A stretch of DNA of 64,000 nucleotides, from positions 1,442 through 65,441 of the forward strand of contig JAZQZI010000020.1 of the NCBI GenBank assembly GCA_045633985.1, written 5' to 3'. The notes under the pieces were generated by a model. That model searched no databases, was not told where the DNA came from, and saw only the letters and a program-made list of their open reading frames with translations. The DNA comes from Tidjanibacter sp. Its GTDB lineage: Bacteria > Bacteroidota > Bacteroidia > Bacteroidales > Rikenellaceae. This document shows positions 2,819 through 59,435 of this stretch, piece after piece (positions within the stretch are counted from its first letter, which is position 1; each line of letters opens with the position of its first letter). The translations under genes and the position numbers were made by a program.

Positions 2819-5263
2819 TTAATTTTCGTTTTTGTCACACTTCACACACTCTCTGCGGCGGCGCACAATACCCACCACGGCAGTTATGACCAGACCTCCC
2901 ACAATCACCAGCGAGAAGCAGAGAGTGATACCCTCCACAAGGTCGAAGGCGGGGGCCCTGAAGCGCCACTCAACGGTGTGACTGCCAGCGGGGAGCACCA
3001 TAGCCCTCAACAGATAGTCGGCCCTCAAATAGGGCATCTCACGACCATCCACATAGGCCGTCCAACCCTTATCGTAGTAAATCTCCGAGAAGACACAGAG
3101 GCCACCCTCCTCGGACTCGTAGCGATAAACGAGGTTATTGGGGCGATATTTCACAAGCTCGATGACACCGGACGAAAGGGTTACGCCCTCCAGCTCCCTT
3201 GCCGCCACGGCATCCATCACAGCCGTATAGTCGGTGGAAATCTCGCTGAGCCACCTCATCTCCTCCGAGGGCGACGAGGCTACCACAACCTCCTCCACAA
3301 ACCACGCAGGGCCATTAGCACCCTCATTGAGCATAGCCTTGGGGGTTGCCCCTTCTTCCTCTGCCACAATGAAGTACTTGGTGTTGAGCATATCGTAGGC
3401 CTCCATATTGCCCGCCAGCAGTTGGTGGTCTATGAGGTCTTGGTAGCGGGATAGTTTCGCACCGTGGTAGCCACCCACCGAGCGGTGGAAGTAACTGGTT
3501 GTAGCATCGTTAAAGGTGCTCACAGCCATATTGGCAACCCTATATCCGAGCTCCTTATCGGCCATAATCTCAAGGTTTGCCTCGGTGGGAAGAATCGTAG
3601 TCTTGGAGGGCTCCACAAAGTCGTCCCAGAAGAGGTAGCGACTATCCACCCCCACCATATCGAAGGTTACGATGGCACCCAGCAGCAGCAACATAATCCC
3701 TCGGCGCAGGCGACCTGCCGAGGTGTGCCACACAACAAGGGCAGAGAGGGTAACAAGAATGAGCGAGCGCAGAGCATCTGCCTCCAACATTGAAGCCCTC
3801 TCCATCTCCATTGCTGCCACCACATCGGCGGGAAGCCCCAACCTTGCGTCGTACGCAGCCGAGAAACTGAACATCTGGCCGCCCAACAGCCACAGCACAA
3901 GCGACACACCGCCCACAATACCTGCGGCCCAGGCTATACCACGAGTAATCTCGGAGCGCTCATAGTCACCCCTCCAGATGCGCCACAGCACCAATGCTCC
4001 GAGCAGGGGCACGCTCCACTGCACCACAACAAGCGCCGTCGATACGGCCCTAAACTTGTCGTAGGCAGGCAATATCTTAAACATCAACTCCGTGAACCAC
4101 ATAAGGTTGGAGCCCCACGCCAGCAACACCGCAAAGATGCTCACCGCCAGCAGCCACCACTTCTCCCTACCCTTCAGCAGGAACAATCCGAGCACCGCAA
4201 GGAAGAGTGCCGAGGCTCCGAGGTAGGTGGGGCCGGCAGTTCCGGGCTGGTCGCCCCAATAGGTGGGGAGCATACGGGCCAAATTGCGGGCACCATAGGG
4301 GCGCAGAGCATCGGCCACCTCGCCATCCTGTGAGAAACCACCCGACGAGGAGCCTCCCATAAGGTTAGGAATCAGCATATTGAGGCTCTCGGTGCGACCA
4401 TAGCTCCACGCAGTGGCATAGGCCAAGTCGAGGCCATTTACCTCCTCTGCCCCACTCTTCTCGGCCGCCATCACACTGCCGCCACGGGTGGTGTCGGGCT
4501 GGTGTTGTGCCGTATAATAAAGCGACGAGAGGTTGGCACCCACAGCCACCACCGCCGAAGCAACGAGCACTGCCGTGGCCTTCGCAAAGCGACCCACCGT
4601 GCGCTCCCGGGCCGCCACCATAAGGCTGTTAATCCACACGGCGGCAATCACAAAGGCAAAGTAATAGGTTATCTGGGGGTGGTTGGCACCAATCTGGAGT
4701 GCCGCAAAGAGCGCCGTAAGCAATCCACCAAGCACCATACGTCTTCCCCGAAGGGTGTAAACCACGCCACCCACAAGCAGTGGCGCATAGGCAAAGGCAA
4801 ACATCTTGGTGATGTGGCCAGCCCCGATAATCAGAATAGAATAGGTGGAAAAACCGTAGGCTATGGCAGGAACAATGGCTACCAGAGGGTTCATACCCCA
4901 CAGTAGCAACATAACCCAGAAGCCTACCAAAGCCAGAAAAATGAGCACCGCAGGGCGCCCGAAAGCGTTGGCCAAATCGGTTGACCAATTCTTTATCAGC
5001 ATCGAGGGGTACTCGATGTTAATCATATAAGCGGGCATACCTCCGAAGGCATTACCCGTCCACTGTGGGTCTTCGCCCTCAGCCTGCATCTGCTTGATAT
5101 CCCGACTCATACCCTCATATTGGGTGATGTCGCCCATAGAGAGTTCGAGCCCCTCCATCTGGGGGGCGAAGTAGAAGAGCGAGAGTGCCAAAAAGAGCAC
5201 CACAGCACCCACATAGGGCACCCAACTCTTCATCATATCTTTGAGATTTTTTTTCATCATCAT
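2819..5263 (-). CDS. YfhO family membrane protein (putative glycosyl-transfer accessory)
   Basis: The ORF-track entry 2819..5278 starts at a TTG. The first ATG is at 5263 (MMMKKNLKD...). The product has many TM helices and a large C-terminal extracytoplasmic domain, as in YfhO-family proteins. Confidence 0.7.
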   Translation of the reverse strand: MMMKKNLKDMMKSWVPYVGAVVLFLALSLFYFAPQMEGLELSMGDITQYEGMSRDIKQMQAEGEDPQWTGNAFGGMPAYMINIEYPSMLIKNWSTDLANAFGRPAVLIFLALVGFWVMLLLWGMNPLVAIVPAIAYGFSTYSILIIGAGHITKMFAFAYAPLLVGGVVYTLRGRRMVLGGLLTALFAALQIGANHPQITYYFAFVIAAVWINSLMVAARERTVGRFAKATAVLVASAVVAVGANLSSLYYTAQHQPDTTRGGSVMAAEKSGAEEVNGLDLAYATAWSYGRTESLNMLIPNLMGGSSSGGFSQDGEVADALRPYGARNLARMLPTYWGDQPGTAGPTYLGASALFLAVLGLFLLKGREKWWLLAVSIFAVLLAWGSNLMWFTELMFKILPAYDKFRAVSTALVVVQWSVPLLGALVLWRIWRGDYERSEITRGIAWAAGIVGGVSLVLWLLGGQMFSFSAAYDARLGLPADVVAAMEMERASMLEADALRSLILVTLSALVVWHTSAGRLRRGIMLLLLGAIVTFDMVGVDSRYLFWDDFVEPSKTTILPTEANLEIMADKELGYRVANMAVSTFNDATTSYFHRSVGGYHGAKLSRYQDLIDHQLLAGNMEAYDMLNTKYFIVAEEEGATPKAMLNEGANGPAWFVEEVVVASSPSEEMRWLSEISTDYTAVMDAVAARELEGVTLSSGVIELVKYRPNNLVYRYESEEGGLCVFSEIYYDKGWTAYVDGREMPYLRADYLLRAMVLPAGSHTVEWRFRAPAFDLVEGITLCFSLVIVGGLVITAVVGIVRRRRECVKCDKNEN

Positions 5264-18078: not shown

Positions 18079-19149
18079 TTATTCAATAATTCCGCACTCC
18101 GTAAATATAAACTCCAACACCTTGCGGGCATCTCTTCGCATAATGGGGTCGTTCGTGTGAGAAACAACCAACTCTATCCAACGACGACCTCTATCATTGG
18201 TCGTTTCACCTCCCCAATTCTCAACCAACACATCTTCAGCACACTCTTTCAAAGTGTTTTTGAACAACTCCTTATGCTCGGCTATCTTACGGAAAACTGC
18301 CGGCATCAACACTCTTGACCCATCGGCAGTTGTCATCCACTCTTTACCTCCCGACGAGAACGAATCTCTCACATTGGCATTGATTATTCCGTTCTCTGTT
18401 GCAAGCCACAAAGTTGCACGGTCATACTTAAACTGGCTCCTGGACAATATCGTTTCGGGGAACAGAACATAGATTGTAGCCTCCAGCTCGTCCTTTTCAA
18501 CCGAAGAGAGCGTTCGCCACAACCTTACCGTTGCGGGAATGGCCGTGTCAGTCCTACCACCAGCCCACCACAAAGCCTCACCTTGTCGAAGTTGTGATTT
18601 ATAGTACTCGGCAACGGGTGTAACAGGATTCTCCATTGTGCGCAACTTGTCATACGGGCACCCCATCTTATCAAAGATGGTTTCTCCCTCCCTTAAATTC
18701 ATATCAATTTGATAACGAGGATAATGAGTGACTGCTATGCCGGACATACACTCCTCATAAGGGCGAGAACGAAATCCTACGGGGTCGGACAATTTACCGA
18801 AAGTCAGAAATATGCGCTCAACATCTGCTATGCGGGTTGATTCCAAAATAGAGCTACCTATCGACCTCCAATTATTACCTTTTGAACTTTTTACCTCTAT
18901 ACCGTAGTATCTGGATGCGACAATGTCTGGGAATGATGCGCCCGAAACCAATTGAATGGCTCCTTCAAATGTGGTATGTTTAGCGCTCTCTACTGCAGCC
19001 GCCCATACATCGCTTTCAAGTTGCAGACCACCTCGGGCAACATAATAATCGCCTCGTTTGGCTGCGTCTGCATTCAATATATCATCCATCCTCTGTATGA
19101 GTTCCTTGAACTCCTCGAGAGAGGGTTTAGGGTTAGTAGCAACAATCAT
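18079..19149 (-). CDS. putative type II restriction endonuclease (PD-(D/E)xK fold)
   Basis: 356-aa ORF with a candidate catalytic motif FPDIV...GIEVKSSK. Its ATG directly abuts the TAG of the upstream C5 methyltransferase. G+C is low. Its specificity is unknown. Confidence 0.55.
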   Translation of the reverse strand: MIVATNPKPSLEEFKELIQRMDDILNADAAKRGDYYVARGGLQLESDVWAAAVESAKHTTFEGAIQLVSGASFPDIVASRYYGIEVKSSKGNNWRSIGSSILESTRIADVERIFLTFGKLSDPVGFRSRPYEECMSGIAVTHYPRYQIDMNLREGETIFDKMGCPYDKLRTMENPVTPVAEYYKSQLRQGEALWWAGGRTDTAIPATVRLWRTLSSVEKDELEATIYVLFPETILSRSQFKYDRATLWLATENGIINANVRDSFSSGGKEWMTTADGSRVLMPAVFRKIAEHKELFKNTLKECAEDVLVENWGGETTNDRGRRWIELVVSHTNDPIMRRDARKVLEFIFTECGIIE

Positions 19150-31417: not shown

Positions 31418-33196
31418 ATGACTATCGAACAGACAATCCTCAATGCCGTAACGGCCACCGTCGAGAAGCTCTACGGCCCCCTCGATGGGCTTCAGCTCCA
31501 ACTCCAGAAGACCCGCAAGGAGTTCACCGGAGATTACACACTCGTAGTATTCCCCCTGCTGAAGCGCAGCCGCAAGTCGCCCGACGCTACAGCCGCCGAG
31601 ATTGGTGAGGCTCTGGCCGCCGAGTGCCCCCTCGTTGAGAGCACCAACACCATCAAGGGCTTCCTCAACATTCAGCTGAAGGCCGACTTCTGGCTCGAGG
31701 AGTTCCGCAAGATTGCCGCCACCGAGCAGTTCGGTAAGGCCCCCGCAAATGGTAAAACAGTGATGGTGGAGTACTCCTCACCCAACACCAACAAGCCCCT
31801 CCACCTGGGCCACATCCGCAACAACCTCCTCGGCTACTCCGTATCGCAGATTTTGGAGGCGTGCGGCTACCGAGTAATCAAGGCCAACCTGGTGAACGAC
31901 CGTGGTATCCACATCTGCAAGAGTATGCTCGCTTGGCAGCTCTATGGCGGTGGCGAGACCCCCCAAAGCAGCGGTATGAAGGGTGACCACCTGGTAGGTA
32001 AATACTATGTGGAGTTCGACAAACACTACAAAGCCGAGGTTAAAGCCCTCGTGGAGAAGGGTATGAGCGAGGATGAGGCCAAAAAGGAGGCCCCCATTAT
32101 GCAGCAGGCACGCACAATGCTCCAGAAGTGGGAGGCTCACGACCCCGAGGTGTATGGCCTCTGGGAGCGTATGAACGGCTGGGTATATGAGGGTTTCGAT
32201 GCCACCTACAAGGCTATGGGTGTATCGTTCGACAAGGTATATTATGAGTCGCAGACCTATCTTTTGGGTAAGGACATCGTGGCCGAGGGTCTGGAGAAGG
32301 GTGTATTCTACCGCCGTGAGGATGGCTCGGTGTGGATCGACCTCACAGCCGACGGCCTCGACGAGAAACTCCTTCTTCGTGGCGACGGCACCAGCGTCTA
32401 TATGACCCAGGATCTCGGTACCGCCCTCAGCCGTCAGCGTGACGAGAGCCTCGATGGCATCATCTACGTTGTGGGCAATGAGCAGAACTACCACTTCCAG
32501 GTGCTCAAACTCGTCCTCAAGAAGCTCGGCTACGAGTGGAGCGACGACATCTTCCACCTCTCCTATGGTATGGTAGAGCTGCCAGAGGGTAAGATGAAGT
32601 CGAGGGAGGGCACCGTGGTGGATGCCGACGACCTCATTGAGGATATGGTGACCACCGCACGAGAGATGAGCGAGGAGCTCGGTAAGCTCGACGGTATGAC
32701 CCCCGAGGAGCAGGACAACATCGCCCACATCGTGGGTCTTGGCGCCCTCAAGTACTTCATCCTCAAAGTGGACCCCAAGAAGACTATGCTCTTCAATCCC
32801 CGTGAGAGTATCGATTTCAACGGCAACACCGGCCCCTTCATTCAGTACACCTACGCACGTATCCACTCGGTGCTCCGCAAGGCTGCCGAGGCAGGTATTG
32901 CCACCTCGTTCGATGGCAAGTTGGAGCTCATCGCCGAGGAGGTGGAGCTGGTGAAATACCTCGCCGACTTCCCCCAGACCGTGCTCCAGGCGGGTGCCAC
33001 CTACTCGCCCAGCGTCATCGGTGCCTACGTTTACGACCTGGCAAAGATGTACAACAGCTACTACCACGACCACTCCATTCTGCGTGAGGAGAGGGAGGAT
33101 GTACGCAGGTTCCGTGTAGCCCTCAGCTCCGTTGTGGCCTCCACCATCGGCTATGGTATGAGCCTGATGGGTATTGAGGTTCCCGAGCGAATGTAA
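31418..33196 (+). CDS. argS: arginine--tRNA ligase
   Basis: 592-aa ORF with the class I HIGH variant (SSPNTNKPLHLGHIRN) and a C-terminal DALR anticodon-binding region. Confidence 0.92.
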   Translation: MTIEQTILNAVTATVEKLYGPLDGLQLQLQKTRKEFTGDYTLVVFPLLKRSRKSPDATAAEIGEALAAECPLVESTNTIKGFLNIQLKADFWLEEFRKIAATEQFGKAPANGKTVMVEYSSPNTNKPLHLGHIRNNLLGYSVSQILEACGYRVIKANLVNDRGIHICKSMLAWQLYGGGETPQSSGMKGDHLVGKYYVEFDKHYKAEVKALVEKGMSEDEAKKEAPIMQQARTMLQKWEAHDPEVYGLWERMNGWVYEGFDATYKAMGVSFDKVYYESQTYLLGKDIVAEGLEKGVFYRREDGSVWIDLTADGLDEKLLLRGDGTSVYMTQDLGTALSRQRDESLDGIIYVVGNEQNYHFQVLKLVLKKLGYEWSDDIFHLSYGMVELPEGKMKSREGTVVDADDLIEDMVTTAREMSEELGKLDGMTPEEQDNIAHIVGLGALKYFILKVDPKKTMLFNPRESIDFNGNTGPFIQYTYARIHSVLRKAAEAGIATSFDGKLELIAEEVELVKYLADFPQTVLQAGATYSPSVIGAYVYDLAKMYNSYYHDHSILREEREDVRRFRVALSSVVASTIGYGMSLMGIEVPERM

Positions 33197-33230
33197 ATAA
33201 CCTGAGTTTTTATTTATATTCCTCCCTAAA

Positions 33231-33420
33231 TCCCTCCTTTATCAAAGGAGGGACTTGGTCAAAAAGCTTTATAGGGGCTTTTTGAAAAGAGGATGTTTCG
33301 GAATTTCAACAAGCTGAAATTCACGAAACTGACGTTAAATAAAGCGCATATTGTTGGTGATTTTTTCACCACCCTCAATGGGCAAGTTCCTCTTTTGCAG
33401 CGGGACTTGCCTTTTTTGTT
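33231..33420 (+). ncRNA. candidate structured RNA or long argS 3' UTR (five consecutive hairpins ending in a terminator)
   Basis: Hairpins lie at 33231-33253, 33260-33284, 33301-33322, 33356-33370 and 33381-33411. The last has a U-G pair only on the plus strand and is followed by TTTTTTGTTT. Confidence 0.3.
33381..33420 (+). terminator. intrinsic terminator (plus strand)
   Basis: Stem GGCAAGTTCC/GGGACTTGCC followed by a T-run. Confidence 0.65.
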
Positions 33421-33532: not shown

Positions 33533-33877
33533 CTATTTAACCGTGTTCACAATTTTCTCGAAAGCCTGGGGGTGGTTCATAGCCAGGTCGGCGAGAACCT
33601 TGCGGTTCATCTCGATACCCTTAGCGTGGCACTTACCCATAAACTCGGAATAGGTCAGACCGTGCATACGAGCGGCAGCGTTGATACGCTGAATCCACAA
33701 GCTACGGTAGTTCCTCTTCTTCTCTTTGCGGTTGCGATAGGCGAACTGCAAACCTTTCTCGACAGTATTTTTGGCTACTGTCCAGACATTTCCCCTTGAA
33801 CCAAAGTTACCTTTGGCAAGTTTTAAAACTTTTTTCCTGCGAGCTCTCGATGCTACAGCATTTACTGATCTAGGCAT
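33533..33877 (-). CDS. rplT: 50S ribosomal protein L20
   Basis: 114-aa ORF beginning [23 protein letters not shown] and continuing ...[10 protein letters not shown]. Confidence 0.95.
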
Positions 33878-57269: not shown

Positions 57270-57388
57270 AAAATTTTACTATTAGTTTGAAAGTTTATTA
57301 CCTACTGCATATCAACCACTTATGAACACATAACATCCGATTTAACAGCAATTTTAATGTTAAATTATTATTAAAAAATTTTAATAAG

Positions 57389-57421
57389 TTTGGAAGTTAG
57401 GGGAAAATGCCCTTATCTTTG
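57389..57421 (+). promoter_or_regulatory. consensus Bacteroidota promoter with no ORF downstream
   Basis: -33 TTTG (57389-57392), a 21-nt spacer, and -7 TATCTTTG (57414-57421). The expected transcription start is near 57428. Confidence 0.5.
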
Positions 57422-57427
57422 CAACGA

Positions 57428-57541
57428 AGTTTTAAGGTTCATTTAGGTTAGTAGTTTTAGGTTAGTAGAAGCAGGGTTAGAAGTGATTCTATCCCCTGTT
57501 GATTAAAAGGTTACGATTTTGTTTAAATCGTAACCTTTTTT
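57428..57541 (+). ncRNA. candidate sRNA or leader transcript ending at the first module terminator
   Basis: It runs from the promoter above to the hairpin GGTTACGATTT/AAATCGTAACC (57509-57535) and its TTTTTT run. It contains the direct repeats AGGTTAGTAG x2 and no ORF. Confidence 0.3.
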
Positions 57542-57630
57542 GTTTTGTGCTAAAGGGGATAGAATCACTATCGAAGAGCCCAACGGGGTCTTCGACCAAG
57601 TCCCCCTTTGCCAAAGGGGGATTTAGGGGG
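57487..57630 (+). repeat. structured ~144-nt module, copy 1
   Basis: A long-range stem GTGATTCTATCCCCT (57483-57497) / AGGGGATAGAATCAC (57554-57568) encloses a terminator-like hairpin. It is followed by hairpins at 57571-57595 and 57601-57621. The module repeats 216 nt downstream. Confidence 0.85.
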
Positions 57631-57646
57631 AATGTAAATACGAAAC

Positions 57647-57700
57647 CTGCGGATATTGCAATGTGCTATCCACGTATGTAACAAGTTGCCATATCCGCAG
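57647..57700 (+). other. long hairpin in the spacer between the two modules
   Basis: CTGCGGATAT-t-GCAA ... TTGC-c-ATATCCGCAG, with 14 paired positions and a loop of about 24 nt. Confidence 0.7.
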
Positions 57701-57702
57701 CG

Positions 57703-57847
57703 TTCTATCCCCTGTTGATTAAAAGGTTACGATTTTGTTTAAATCGTAACCTTTTTTCTTTTTATGCCTCGGGGGATAGAATCACTATCGAAGAGTCCAA
57801 CGGGGTCTTCGACCAAGTCCCCCTTTCTCAAAGGGGAATTTAGGGTG
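57703..57847 (+). repeat. structured ~144-nt module, copy 2
   Basis: Near-identical to copy 1 in all paired segments. It diverges in the linker after the T-run and in a hairpin loop, and it has one C-to-T change that turns a G-C pair into G-U. Confidence 0.85.
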
Positions 57848-57911
57848 AAAATATACACCATTTGGCAATAAAAAATAGAGGGTATTCGTTCGCAATATTG
57901 AGTAACATCAC

Positions 57912-57919
57912 TACCTTTG
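57912..57919 (+). promoter_or_regulatory. possible -7 box (TACCTTTG) proximal to the efflux operon
   Basis: It matches TAnnTTTG about 105 nt upstream of the tolC-like ATG. No clear -33 TTTG sits at the expected spacing. Confidence 0.35.
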
Positions 57920-58025
57920 CGCCGTTAGGAATGGGAAATTCCGAAAACACCCCCTCACACTCTCACAATGAGGGTGGCTTCGACCACGATTCGAATAACA
58001 AAACAGATATTCACACAGTAGAACT

Positions 58026-59435
58026 ATGAAGAGATTTATCATTTCGCTGCTCGTTGTGTGCGGCGCCCTCTCCGTGAGTGCCCAACCCATCGAGCTATCG
58101 CTCGCCAAGTCGCTCGAAATCGCACTGTCGGACAACCCCACAATCAAGGTTGCCGATATGGAGATTGAGCGTCAGGACTGGGTCAAGAAGCAGAGCATCG
58201 GCAACCTGCTCCCCTCGGTATCCATCTCGGGACAGTACTCCTACAGCATCGTGAAGCAGGAGATGGCCAAGGGTCTTTCCTTTGGTGCCGACAACTCCAT
58301 CAGCACCTCGGCCTCCCTCACCCTTCCCCTGTTTGCTCCCGCCGTGTATGAGACACTCAAGATGAACCAGACACAGATGGAGCAGGCTGTGGAGAGTGCC
58401 CGCAGCTCCAAGATAACCCTCGCCAACGAGGTGAAGAAGGGCTACTACAACATTCTGCTGGCCGAGCAGTCGCTGGCAGTGCTCAAGGAGAGCGAGGCCT
58501 CCATCTCGGAGACCGTGAGGAACACCGAGAATATGTACAACCAGGGGTTGGCATCCGAGTATGACCTCCTCTCGGCCCAGGTGCAGCTCTCCAACCTCCG
58601 CCCCACTATTGTACAGACCGAGAACTCCATAAAGGCCTCCAAGCTCCTGTTCCGTATGTATCTGGGGCTCCCCGCCTCGGTGGACTTCACGCTTGGTGGC
58701 ACCCTCGACGACTTTGCCGAGGAGGTGGCTATGGCCACCGTACCCACCAATGAGGTAGATCTTTCGGCCAATGCCGACCTGAGGGCCCTCGACCTTCAGC
58801 GCCGACTCCTCGACCACCAGCTGCAACTTGTGAACGCTTCGAGGATGCCCACCGTGGCCGCCTTCACCAACTTCATCTTCTCCGGTAACGACAACACGAT
58901 GGACTTCGGCAGTATGATGGGCGGTATGGGCTCCGCAGGTGGCGGCACCGAGGGAGGCTCGACAGGCAGCTCCCCCTCAACCAAGAAGGAGTGGTGGTGG
59001 CAGAACCCCCTCTCGGCAGGTATCACCATAAGCATCCCCCTCTTCTCGGGTGGTAAGAATATCAATAAGGCCCACGAAATCCGCAACTCCATCTCCCAGC
59101 TCTCGCTCCAGAGGGACTACCTCGAGCAGAGCATCGGTGTGCAGGTGGAGAGTGCCTTCAATAATATTGTGGCCGCAAGGGAGAAGATGACCGCCAACGA
59201 AATCACCGTGCGTCAGGCACAGAAGGCCTACGAGATTGCCGAGGTGAGGTACAACGCCGGAACGGGCACCATCCTCGAGCTCAACTCCTCGGAGCTGTCG
59301 CTCACACAGGCCAAGCTCAACTACTCCCAAGCCATCTACGACTACCTGGCAGCACGTGCCGACTACGAGAAAATCATTGGCGAGGATTTCGAGCCCGAGG
59401 AGAGCTCCGAGCCCACAGCCGAGGTTGCCCAATAA
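58026..59435 (+). CDS. TolC-family outer-membrane efflux protein
   Basis: 469-aa ORF with a signal peptide, two tandem TolC-like repeats and a G/S-rich insert. It is the first gene of the efflux operon. Confidence 0.85.
   Translation: MKRFIISLLVVCGALSVSAQPIELSLAKSLEIALSDNPTIKVADMEIERQDWVKKQSIGNLLPSVSISGQYSYSIVKQEMAKGLSFGADNSISTSASLTLPLFAPAVYETLKMNQTQMEQAVESARSSKITLANEVKKGYYNILLAEQSLAVLKESEASISETVRNTENMYNQGLASEYDLLSAQVQLSNLRPTIVQTENSIKASKLLFRMYLGLPASVDFTLGGTLDDFAEEVAMATVPTNEVDLSANADLRALDLQRRLLDHQLQLVNASRMPTVAAFTNFIFSGNDNTMDFGSMMGGMGSAGGGTEGGSTGSSPSTKKEWWWQNPLSAGITISIPLFSGGKNINKAHEIRNSISQLSLQRDYLEQSIGVQVESAFNNIVAAREKMTANEITVRQAQKAYEIAEVRYNAGTGTILELNSSELSLTQAKLNYSQAIYDYLAARADYEKIIGEDFEPEESSEPTAEVAQ

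Follow-up and report, generated by a model that had tools for sequence, protein, structure and literature searches.

The window analysed here is a stretch of 64,000 nucleotides (nt) from Tidjanibacter sp. (Bacteroidota; Rikenellaceae), corresponding to positions 1,442 to 65,441 of contig JAZQZI010000020.1 in assembly GCA_045633985.1, and all coordinates refer to it. A 756-nt spacer with 38% G+C (window, 54% G+C) lies between a family-9 glycosyltransferase gene and an operon for TolC, membrane-fusion and AcrB-type proteins (the TolC/RND operon). Within this spacer, a multi-hairpin unit is present in two copies at 57487–57641 and 57703–57858, with a start-to-start distance of 216/217 nt. A preliminary description had reported the two copies 216 nt apart and considered them a tandem attenuator or riboswitch of the efflux operon or, alternatively, a duplicated small-RNA gene or a miniature inverted-repeat transposable element (MITE). 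The duplication itself was borne out. The copies share 92.3% identity over 143 nt (BLAST E = 4.5e-50) and are separated by 16 differences, one indel included, and a 24-nt probe derived from the unit has two matches in the window, with zero expected. The locus as a whole is probably not one regulatory module but a composite of the 3′ end of a small-RNA gene, a dispersed repeat with an intrastrand triplex motif and a local duplication. Its features are as follows.

57389–57421, + strand: predicted small-RNA promoter, with a −33 TTTG (57389–57392), a 21-nt spacer and the −7 element TATCTTTG (57414–57421)

57427–57546, + strand: predicted small RNA of ~120 nt, whose 5′ region is single-stranded and is followed by P2 (a local hairpin) and hairpin A (the terminator)

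57442–57454 and 57456–57468, + strand: signature motif of the small RNA, two copies of TTTAGGTTAGTAG

57470–57500, + strand: local hairpin P2, with 57470–57476 paired to 57494–57500 and 57478–57482 paired to 57487–57491 (fold of the RNA alone)

57505–57546, + strand: hairpin A (15 bp) and T-run, the predicted intrinsic terminator of the small RNA

57554–57568, + strand: R-arm, the exact complement of 57483–57497

57568–57641, + strand: repeat copy 1, consisting of CTATC, hairpin B (57571–57595), GACCAAG, the triplex motif and the tail AATGTAAATAC

57601–57633, + strand: intrastrand triplex motif of the class II purine type, with the Y-stem TCCCCCTTT (57601–57609), loop GCC, R-stem AAAGGGGGA (57613–57621), loop TTT and third strand AGGGGGAAT (57625–57633)

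57645–57702, + strand: spacer hairpin D, with two double compensatory changes at its base relative to the orthologous locus L077

57703–57762, + strand: first part of copy 2, with a truncated 5′ arm (57703–57713), hairpin A′ (57721–57755) and a T-run; 98% identity to copy 1

57763–57858, + strand: second part of copy 2, with R-arm′ (57772–57785), hairpin B′ (57788–57812) and a decayed triplex motif (57818–57850); missing in L077

57912–57919, + strand: candidate −7 box of the TolC/RND operon, TACCTTTG, downstream of the whole module

33210–33332, − strand: third copy of the repeat, between rplT (33533–33877, −) and argS (31418–33196, +)

The anatomy of the unit agrees largely with the preliminary description. 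A perfect long-range stem of 15–16 bp joins 57483–57497 (the 5′ arm) to 57554–57568, and in copy 2 this stem is shortened to ~10–11 bp (57703–57713/57772–57785). Inside it lies hairpin A, a perfect 15-bp stem (57505–57519/57525–57539) followed by a T-run and repeated at 57721–57755. The earlier proposal that this hairpin is a terminator is supported by a terminator scanner, which scored both copies as terminator-like, but the stem is 15 bp long and not 11 bp as had been stated. The two further hairpins and the spacer hairpin are present as described: hairpin B with 10 of 11 pairs, hairpin C (57601–57609/57613–57621) with 9 bp and no imperfection, and hairpin D (~57645–57702) between the copies. 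Compared with shuffled sequences, the fold energy has z scores of −11.0 and −11.2 on the two strands. Because the excess folding is equal on both strands, it is a signature of palindromic DNA and favors neither RNA strand.

The first copy begins inside a predicted small-RNA gene. Judged from its sequence, the region 57389–57546 is a conserved Bacteroidales small-RNA gene with its own promoter, whose transcription we infer. The promoter consensus of Bacteroidota consists of −7 TAnnTTTG and −33 TTTG (PMC7366714). Both elements are found here, downstream of an A/T-rich block (~57350–57388), and the box is kept in the orthologues and in ~34 paralogous or orthologous loci among the matches listed. 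When the RNA is folded alone, the 5′ arm of the preliminary description falls within the local hairpin P2, where it makes up the loop and the 3′ side. The predicted RNA thus spans ~57427–57546, with its start taken at GAAGU (~57426–57428) and its end at the T-run. Transcription from 57389–57421 would produce a single-stranded 5′ region and P2, with hairpin A serving as the terminator.

Comparison of orthologues revealed compensatory changes in both hairpins. In P2, two pairs have changed on both sides among the three orthologues (G-C to A-U at 57474/57496 and A-U to U-G at 57473/57497), and in hairpin A three adjacent pairs (ACG/CGT to GTC/GAC) have done so relative to both L077 and L242. Identity between the window and L077 is 83% in the promoter, 96% in the 5′ region, 88% in P2 and 76% in hairpin A with its T-run, compared with 26%–42% in neutral parts of the spacer. 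In strain L253, the alignment covers the final 110 nt of the small RNA as far as the T-run of the terminator, and all 110 positions are identical. The two copies of TTTAGGTTAGTAG (two matches in the window versus 0.03 expected) are invariant in orthologues and paralogues and are a candidate seed or protein-binding motif. At the family level, the signature is two copies of UUUAGGUUAGUAG in the 5′ region. In the window, a third GGUUAG-like motif follows the pair (GGGTTAGAAG); the series may represent a repeated motif for the binding of protein or RNA.

When metagenomes were scanned with this signature, at least 120 stretches were found. Among the matches listed, ~34 distinct loci from gut metagenomes contain the −7 box, GAAGU, two seed copies and a hairpin with a T-run; in 32 of these 34 members the hairpin ahead of the T-run is at or below −10 kcal/mol, and a tRNA gene (Leu-like) often lies directly downstream. 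A paralogue was found in L069. Many other matches to the seed pattern (L144, L183, L208, L224, L252 and similar) are unrelated environmental tandem arrays of TTTAGGTTAGT-like units; these have neither a promoter box nor a terminator and are not members of the family. The signature of two UUUAGGUUAGUAG copies had no match in the searchable literature full text, and the small RNA is apparently an undescribed family. A search for complements of the seed within the window gave one site with two mismatches (19127–19139) besides the minus-strand copies of the gene itself, nothing beyond chance.

A search against Rfam had been proposed in the preliminary description. At gathering score, there were no matches to curated families in the whole window, and for the window together with 23 related loci the search returned tRNAs only. 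Under permissive settings, the best sub-threshold match was Termite-leu (30.9 versus 51 bits), which covers only the terminator hairpin, and plant and animal miRNA models matched the long palindrome; all of these were rejected as generic hairpin matches. An identity with BTnc231 was rejected as chance, since the match extends beyond the terminator and reaches 16 bits, where the gathering score is 80. A tRNA/tmRNA scan of the window found none. CRISPR repeats, attC sites, IS200/IS605 ends, group II intron domains and self-cleaving ribozymes were also considered and were supported by neither the anatomy nor Rfam.

The downstream part of each copy has a different origin. Similarity of the window to dispersed copies begins only at 57568, which places the R-arm outside the dispersed unit; it also lies outside the small RNA. 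From 57568 onward, copy 1 matches other loci with 88%–100% identity by BLAST. A pattern fitting all three copies of the window was used to scan one genome per species and found more than 114 stretches. The counts that follow are among the matches listed. Nearly all hosts are metagenome-assembled genomes (MAGs) of Alistipes, Tidjanibacter and other Rikenellaceae, recovered from human and ruminant guts; those outside this family are MAGs of Geobacter (two), Syntrophobacterales (one) and Muribaculum (one). Three MAGs contain at least ten copies each. The copies are intergenic in 119 of 122 cases, and their gene context has no link to efflux genes. The preliminary description had asked whether the module always stands upstream of efflux or transport genes, and had held that many dispersed copies with target-site duplications and no link to downstream genes would indicate a plain MITE and speak against regulation. 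In the genome scan copies stand beside unrelated genes, and hairpins B and C occur dispersed and in any orientation.

The conserved part of the repeat consists of GACCAAG, hairpin C and TTTAGGGGGAATGTAAATA, ~45 nt that are nearly invariant and end in a sharp 3′ boundary. The hairpin abutting it, at the position of hairpin B, is variable, with 84 distinct sequences among the matches listed. A stem of at least 6 bp ending exactly at −1 of GACCAAG is found in 75 of 110 copies, compared with 36 of 330 control positions. Several unrelated upstream families, ~70–105 nt of other hairpins, are joined to the one core, which makes the repeat system a mosaic. A hairpin also trails many other copies, as hairpin D trails copy 1. 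The duplication in the window is typical of the family, since nine same-strand tandem pairs, 122–433 nt apart, were found among ~126 copies.

The third copy in the window was detected by a sensitive self-search. It consists of a ATTTCAGC..GTTGAAAT hairpin, hairpin B, GACCAAG and a variant triplex motif (33253–33218; TCCCTCCTTT-GAT-AAAGGAGGGA-TTT-AGGGAGGAAT), in which the stem of hairpin C is changed yet still paired. Its upstream family starts with the hairpin GTTTCGTGAATTTCAGC..GTTGAAATTCCGAAAC. A related locus (L261) shares both flanks of the rplT-argS spacer, which is 24 nt long there and ~123 nt with the repeat in the window; comparison of the two revealed no clean empty site or target-site duplication. 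A further intergenic hairpin module of Tidjanibacter, consisting of CCTCCCCTGAGTCAGGGGAGG, a small GC hairpin and GGAGGGG in this order, lies ~60–150 nt upstream of the core in L013, L039, L049, L059, L064, L069, L101 and others. It is probably a separate repeat family.

The core of the repeat is, by sequence criteria, an intrastrand triplex motif of the class known as BoxC, rediscovered as PIT elements and then as TM motifs (Holder et al., 2015; PMC4666352). These criteria (ITxF-style; PMC4666352) call for three consecutive blocks with stems of 6–15 nt, loops of 1–6 nt and at most one mismatch, only the triads C-G·G, T-A·A and T-A·T being allowed and the third block running antiparallel to the purine block. 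Copy 1 (57601–57633) and the copy at 33.2 kb pass this search with zero mismatches, and none of 30 shuffled windows contained such a motif. Copy 2 (57818–57850) has one C-A stem mismatch and two bad triads, and by this failure its motif is judged to be decaying. As single-stranded DNA, the core may form a hairpin with the third strand in its groove; the motif of E. coli forms a stable single-strand triplex in vitro (PMC4666352). The single-strand oligonucleotide forms are TCCCCCTTTGCCAAAGGGGGATTTAGGGGGAAT for the motif and TCCCTCCTTTGATAAAGGAGGGATTTAGGGAGGAAT for the variant.

A second line of evidence comes from natural variation. In the Rikenellaceae variant, the three segments change together (TCCCTCCTTT/AAAGGAGGGA/AGGGAGGAA), and the last is the mirror image of the purine arm. 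In 1.72 Mb of collected DNA, the mirror rule alone accounts for 35 distinct asymmetric instances, which involve 11 stems, 7 of them with an internal A whose position is mirrored. The alternative rule of a direct repeat is fitted alone by five instances, all of one unrelated stem. This stem belongs to the CCTCCCCTGAGTCAGGGGAGG module, the sole one to obey the direct and not the mirror rule. Three other explanations of the core were considered and rejected. Mimicry of Shine-Dalgarno and anti-Shine-Dalgarno sequences (GGAGG/CCTCC in the variant) does not suit the canonical cross-phylum form, which is G5/C5, and the mirror rule holds without GGAGG. Pairing of the C-run with the second G-run suits the canonical form but not the asymmetric variants. 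A start-stop mini-open reading frame (ATG TAA after the G-run) has a TAA that is not conserved.

The core extends well beyond Rikenellaceae. It was found by BLAST against plasmids in cyanobacterial and Acinetobacter plasmids (AAGTCCCCCTT..AAGGGGGATTTAGGGGGAT), at loci L001, L002, L004 and L005 from Acinetobacter, Synechocystis, Nostoc and Planktothrix. Across at least four phyla, 30–35 core bases (…AAGTCCCCCTTT-loop-AAAGGGGGATTTAGGGGGA…) are identical, and in Geobacter (L031, L080, L113) and Syntrophobacterales (L071) MAGs the GACCAAG prefix is identical as well. This identity across phyla is compatible with horizontal spread or with convergence on a preferred triplex sequence. Matches in Lactococcus plasmids were discarded, because they amount to no more than an unspecific G/C hairpin located after an Fst toxin gene. 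A scan of viral contigs found the core in nine stretches. One phage-like contig has as many as seven copies within 23 kb, again with a variable hairpin ahead of them; they run in the direction of the genes and occupy ~100-nt gaps between open reading frames (ORFs). Phage-like contigs with the core include L127, L132 (IMG/VR contig 3300035670_001258) and L128/L129. The phage copies often follow a C-rich partner resembling a reverse complement (AATCCCCCCTAACCCCCCTTTC..GAAAGGGGGG) and a small GCGAAGC-type hairpin, and some stand in head-to-tail arrays with a spacing of 39–81 nt. A BLAST search of phage GenBank records with the module gave no match, and literature full text held nothing relevant on the core motif.

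Some of these contexts would suit a unit that acts as RNA. Hairpin B and the triplex unit might, like REP or BIME elements, stabilize 3′ ends, terminate transcription weakly or punctuate translational coupling, and the copies in the window would then modulate the stability of a read-through transcript. The excess of convergent over divergent gene pairs around the repeat (25 versus 7, p = 0.002, among the matches listed), the co-orientation of the phage copies in their inter-ORF gaps and a copy placed directly after a stop codon in an Acinetobacter plasmid are all consistent with this. Against it, orientation relative to co-directional neighbors is unbiased in Rikenellaceae (21 co-oriented versus 27 anti-oriented, p = 0.47, among the matches listed), and an RNA hairpin gives the mirror rule no obvious explanation. 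The E. coli motif was found to have neither promoter nor terminator activity (PMC4666352), and, according to literature cited in that paper, purine-motif triplexes do not form in RNA. A role at the level of RNA is consequently regarded as very unlikely. The variable hairpin and the invariant triplex unit could instead represent one horizontally spreading element in which the triplex fold of single-stranded DNA is itself under selection. This proposal is put forward tentatively and is, on balance, doubtful. The selected fold may be, for example, a recognition structure for a conserved enzyme of replication, recombination or mobilization.

To return to the efflux locus, the segment upstream of tolC is found in four different states in the window, L077, L242 and L253. 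L077, from another species of Tidjanibacter, is an orthologous locus with a TolC gene of ~80% identity at the DNA level; it contains copy 1 and hairpin D, and of copy 2 it has the 5′ arm′ and hairpin A′. The place of R-arm′, hairpin B′ and the second motif is taken in L077 (~3990–4170, minus strand) by a C9 run and tandem GAAAGACAA/GAAAGACAG repeats, a further indication of slippage-prone DNA at the locus. In L242, which comes from another species (TolC, 85% amino-acid identity), promoter, small RNA, P2 and hairpin A are followed by unrelated sequence up to tolC. The near-identical strain L253 was retrieved by an exact-protein look-up of HlyD; its HlyD is identical and its TolC-HlyD DNA is 98.3% identical to that of the window. 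Exact look-ups succeeded for HlyD and L20, and the look-up of TolC returned no record.

In L253, homology with the window breaks at ~57547, right after the terminator T-run, and resumes at ~58005–58013, before the tolC start codon. Between these breakpoints lie ~210 nt of unrelated DNA with a −7 box of its own and a TetR-family gene that ends 4 nt before tolC. In a comparison of L253 1–960 with window 57437–58030, every element of the block was missing: the R-arm, hairpin B, the triplex motif, the spacer hairpin and the second copy. The same tetR-tolC junction is present in L254, and no tetR occupies this position in the window strain, L077 or L242. Because the block beyond the terminator is missing in L253 and L242, it is not needed for the small RNA or the operon. 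Loci with the triplex motif were seen to vary between close relatives, a qualitative observation drawn from this locus, the rplT-argS site and the nine tandem pairs. Such motifs have been reported to mark locally rearranged loci (PMC4666352).

These comparisons bear directly on the attenuator or riboswitch that had been proposed for the TolC/RND leader, in which the long stem would compete with the terminator. The idea has some appeal, as a strongly structured block with two intrinsic-terminator-like hairpins stands upstream of tolC. An attenuator would, however, lie in the 5′ untranslated region, and the −7 box at 57912–57919, a candidate box and not a mapped start site, is downstream of the whole module; equivalent boxes precede TolC in all three orthologues (TACATTTG in L077 and TACCTTTG in L242). 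No TAnnTTTG box was found on either strand between 57422 and 57911. The long stem encloses the terminator, and because the two are nested, they do not compete as mutually exclusive structures; the competitor of the long stem is P2 of the small RNA. An association with one class of gene is likewise lacking, half of the module being a dispersed repeat that adjoins genes unrelated to efflux, and the module is missing from a 98%–100% identical strain, where tetR precedes tolC, and from L242. Together with the lack of an Rfam match, this makes a tandem attenuator highly improbable, and a leader switch for the TolC/RND operon is not supported by the comparative data. The operon would start from its own downstream promoter, and the most that the block would contribute is one more terminator on the way from the small-RNA promoter to the operon.

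The suggestion that 57483–57568 is a MITE with 15-bp terminal inverted repeats, carrying a terminator, inserted upstream of tolC and then duplicated, fares no better. The perfect inverted repeats of 15–16 bp around a 56-nt interior with a hairpin do have the appearance of such an element, and part of the module has indeed proved to be a dispersed repeat. The left repeat, however, lies within a covarying hairpin of the conserved small RNA, and in L253 and L242 it occurs with the interior but without the right repeat. The exact 13-mer of the R-arm, GGGATAGAATCAC, was found only in the orthologue L077 among 119 related loci (~0.8 Mb), and a search of 1.7 Mb of mostly related DNA turned up the whole unit nowhere else than in L077. 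A search of viral and metagenome loci allowing two mismatches gave a match abutting the small RNA only in L242, the others being scattered single sites; the 5′ arm of L242 is not listed in this search because of a one-base insertion. No direct repeat flanks 57483–57568, and the breakpoint in L253 is at the T-run and not at the arms. An inserted MITE is thus scarcely plausible.

A duplicated small-RNA gene, the other alternative raised before, is partly right. The locus does include such a gene, but the duplication took in no more than its 3′ end, which the first part of copy 2 repeats without a promoter. This part is present in L077 as well, with two double and one single compensatory changes. 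Quasipalindrome template switching and slippage at hairpins can copy an arm inversely across a hairpin, can match seemingly compensatory changes without selection and can yield direct duplications bounded by structured DNA. In the composite reading, rearrangement around the strongly structured sequences would have produced the inverted copy of the 5′ arm, that is, the R-arm, and also the 155-nt direct duplication 216 nt downstream. Replication slippage or template switching is the presumed cause of the duplication; the first copy may have been kept similar by conversion, and the second would already be in decay.

The same block could also be read as a functional extension of the small RNA. Read-through would pair the 5′ arm with the R-arm, dissolve P2 and form a duplex of ~30 bp, which would serve as an alternative isoform or an RNase III site, and the second terminator would be a fail-safe insulator before the TolC promoter. 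The pairing with the R-arm is perfect over 15–16 bp and is, moreover, kept in L077 by a double change at 57496/57555. Position 57496 (C in the window, T in L077) has two partners, 57474 in P2 and 57555 in the R-arm, and both are changed from G to A in L077; the arm-to-arm pairing and P2 are true alternative structures. As the block lacks a promoter box, it would be transcribed by read-through only. The compensatory changes in hairpin A′ and the 79%–87% identity between species of the R-arm, the 5′ arm′ and hairpin A′ also favor this view. Yet the block is dispensable, being gone in L253 and L242 with an intact small RNA, and only one covarying pair is informative, whereas conversion or template switching can match repeats without selection. 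The downstream half of copy 2 is missing in L077 and is decaying in the window. On these grounds a functional extension is considered rather unlikely.

Several observations nevertheless weigh against the composite reading. The three inter-species orthologues are equidistant, with TolC amino-acid identities of 83.6%–86.6% in all pairs, and for this reason gain of the block cannot be polarized from loss. Identity between the window and L077 is 87% in the R-arm, 78% in hairpin B and 79% in the 5′ arm′ with hairpin A′, all above that of the neutral parts; the base of hairpin D is conserved as well, and the conserved parts of the block carry compensatory changes. These parts could have a function in the lineages that carry the block, for example if read-through is trapped in the long duplex and stopped at the second terminator. 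Alternatively, gene conversion or template switching at quasipalindromes could maintain the match between the repeats of the block. The small RNA with its two ends is a prediction, as is any transcription past its terminator. In E. coli, triplex formation by the motif was not detected in vivo (PMC4666352).

Under the composite reading, a multidrug-type efflux operon loses a tempting but wrong annotation, namely control by a tandem riboswitch or attenuator. What the reading offers in exchange is repeat DNA and a conserved, unannotated small-RNA family of gut Rikenellaceae, in which promoter, seed motif and terminator are clear. If the predictions hold, the RNA with two UUUAGGUUAGUAG copies would be a widespread undescribed regulator in these bacteria. 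The reading also extends the little-studied intrastrand-triplex repeats to Bacteroidota, plasmids and phage contigs, and the natural three-way covariation of their triads bears on whether triplexes have a role in vivo, which experiments with the E. coli motif could not show. Should the spreading element and its selected fold be real, the mirrored covariation would be comparative evidence for intrastrand triplexes in vivo. The segment upstream of tolC is replaced at the strain level, by tetR in one strain and by repeats in another, and regulation of the efflux operon may accordingly differ between near-identical gut strains. The novelty is modest: the repeat forms a new sequence family within a known class, and the small RNA is apparently an undescribed family.

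Several known systems resemble parts of this locus. Like enterobacterial REP/BIME and pneumococcal BOX elements, the repeat is a short structured non-coding unit built of modules in varied orders; its copies number in the dozens, lie between genes, favor the 3′ ends of genes and form tandem arrays of varying size. It has no sequence similarity to them, and its core obeys the rules of a triplex rather than those of a simple palindrome. No RAYT-like transposase was seen in association with it, although no search aimed at one was made. The quasipalindrome mechanism would fit the exact inverted 5′ arm beyond the hairpin and is a mechanism, not a family.

The small RNA is close in design to the intergenic small RNAs of Bacteroides, such as GibS, BTnc201 and BTnc231 (Ryan et al., 2020; PMC7366714). 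These have their own promoter of the sigma-ABfr type (TAnnTTTG), a length of ~100–150 nt, a conserved single-stranded 5′ region and an intrinsic terminator, and features of this kind, a start site and an intrinsic terminator, are those by which high-confidence small RNAs were judged (PMC7366714). In contrast to them, the small RNA described here has no Rfam match and is known from sequence alone.

The closest parallel to the core is the E. coli element BoxC/PIT/TMECO, for which the comparison relies on Hoyne et al. (2000) as cited in PMC4666352. Both consist of a Y-stem, a 3–6-nt loop, an R-stem, a 3-nt loop and an antiparallel second R-stem, with stems of 9–10 nt and only the three permitted triads (PMC4666352). 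BoxC/PIT/TM copies are numerous, nearly identical and always intergenic, show no strand bias and sometimes form inverted or tandem pairs; the loci that carry them differ between close relatives, and they are abundant in enterobacteria and cyanobacteria (PMC4666352). The TMECO/BoxC consensus, CCCTCNCCC-N3-6-GGGNGAGGG-N3-GGGNGAGGG, is not matched by TCCCCCTTT/AAAGGGGGA/AGGGGGAAT, and the hosts differ, being Bacteroidota here, with the core also in Cyanobacteria, Acinetobacter, Geobacter and Syntrophobacterales. TMECO was reported to be absent from plasmids and phages (PMC4666352), whereas the present core is found on plasmids and phage contigs. Unlike TMECO, it is fused to a variable abutting hairpin and embedded in longer mosaic units. 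Because its consensus differs from that of E. coli and it occurs on plasmids and phage contigs, the core represents a new sequence family of this known class.

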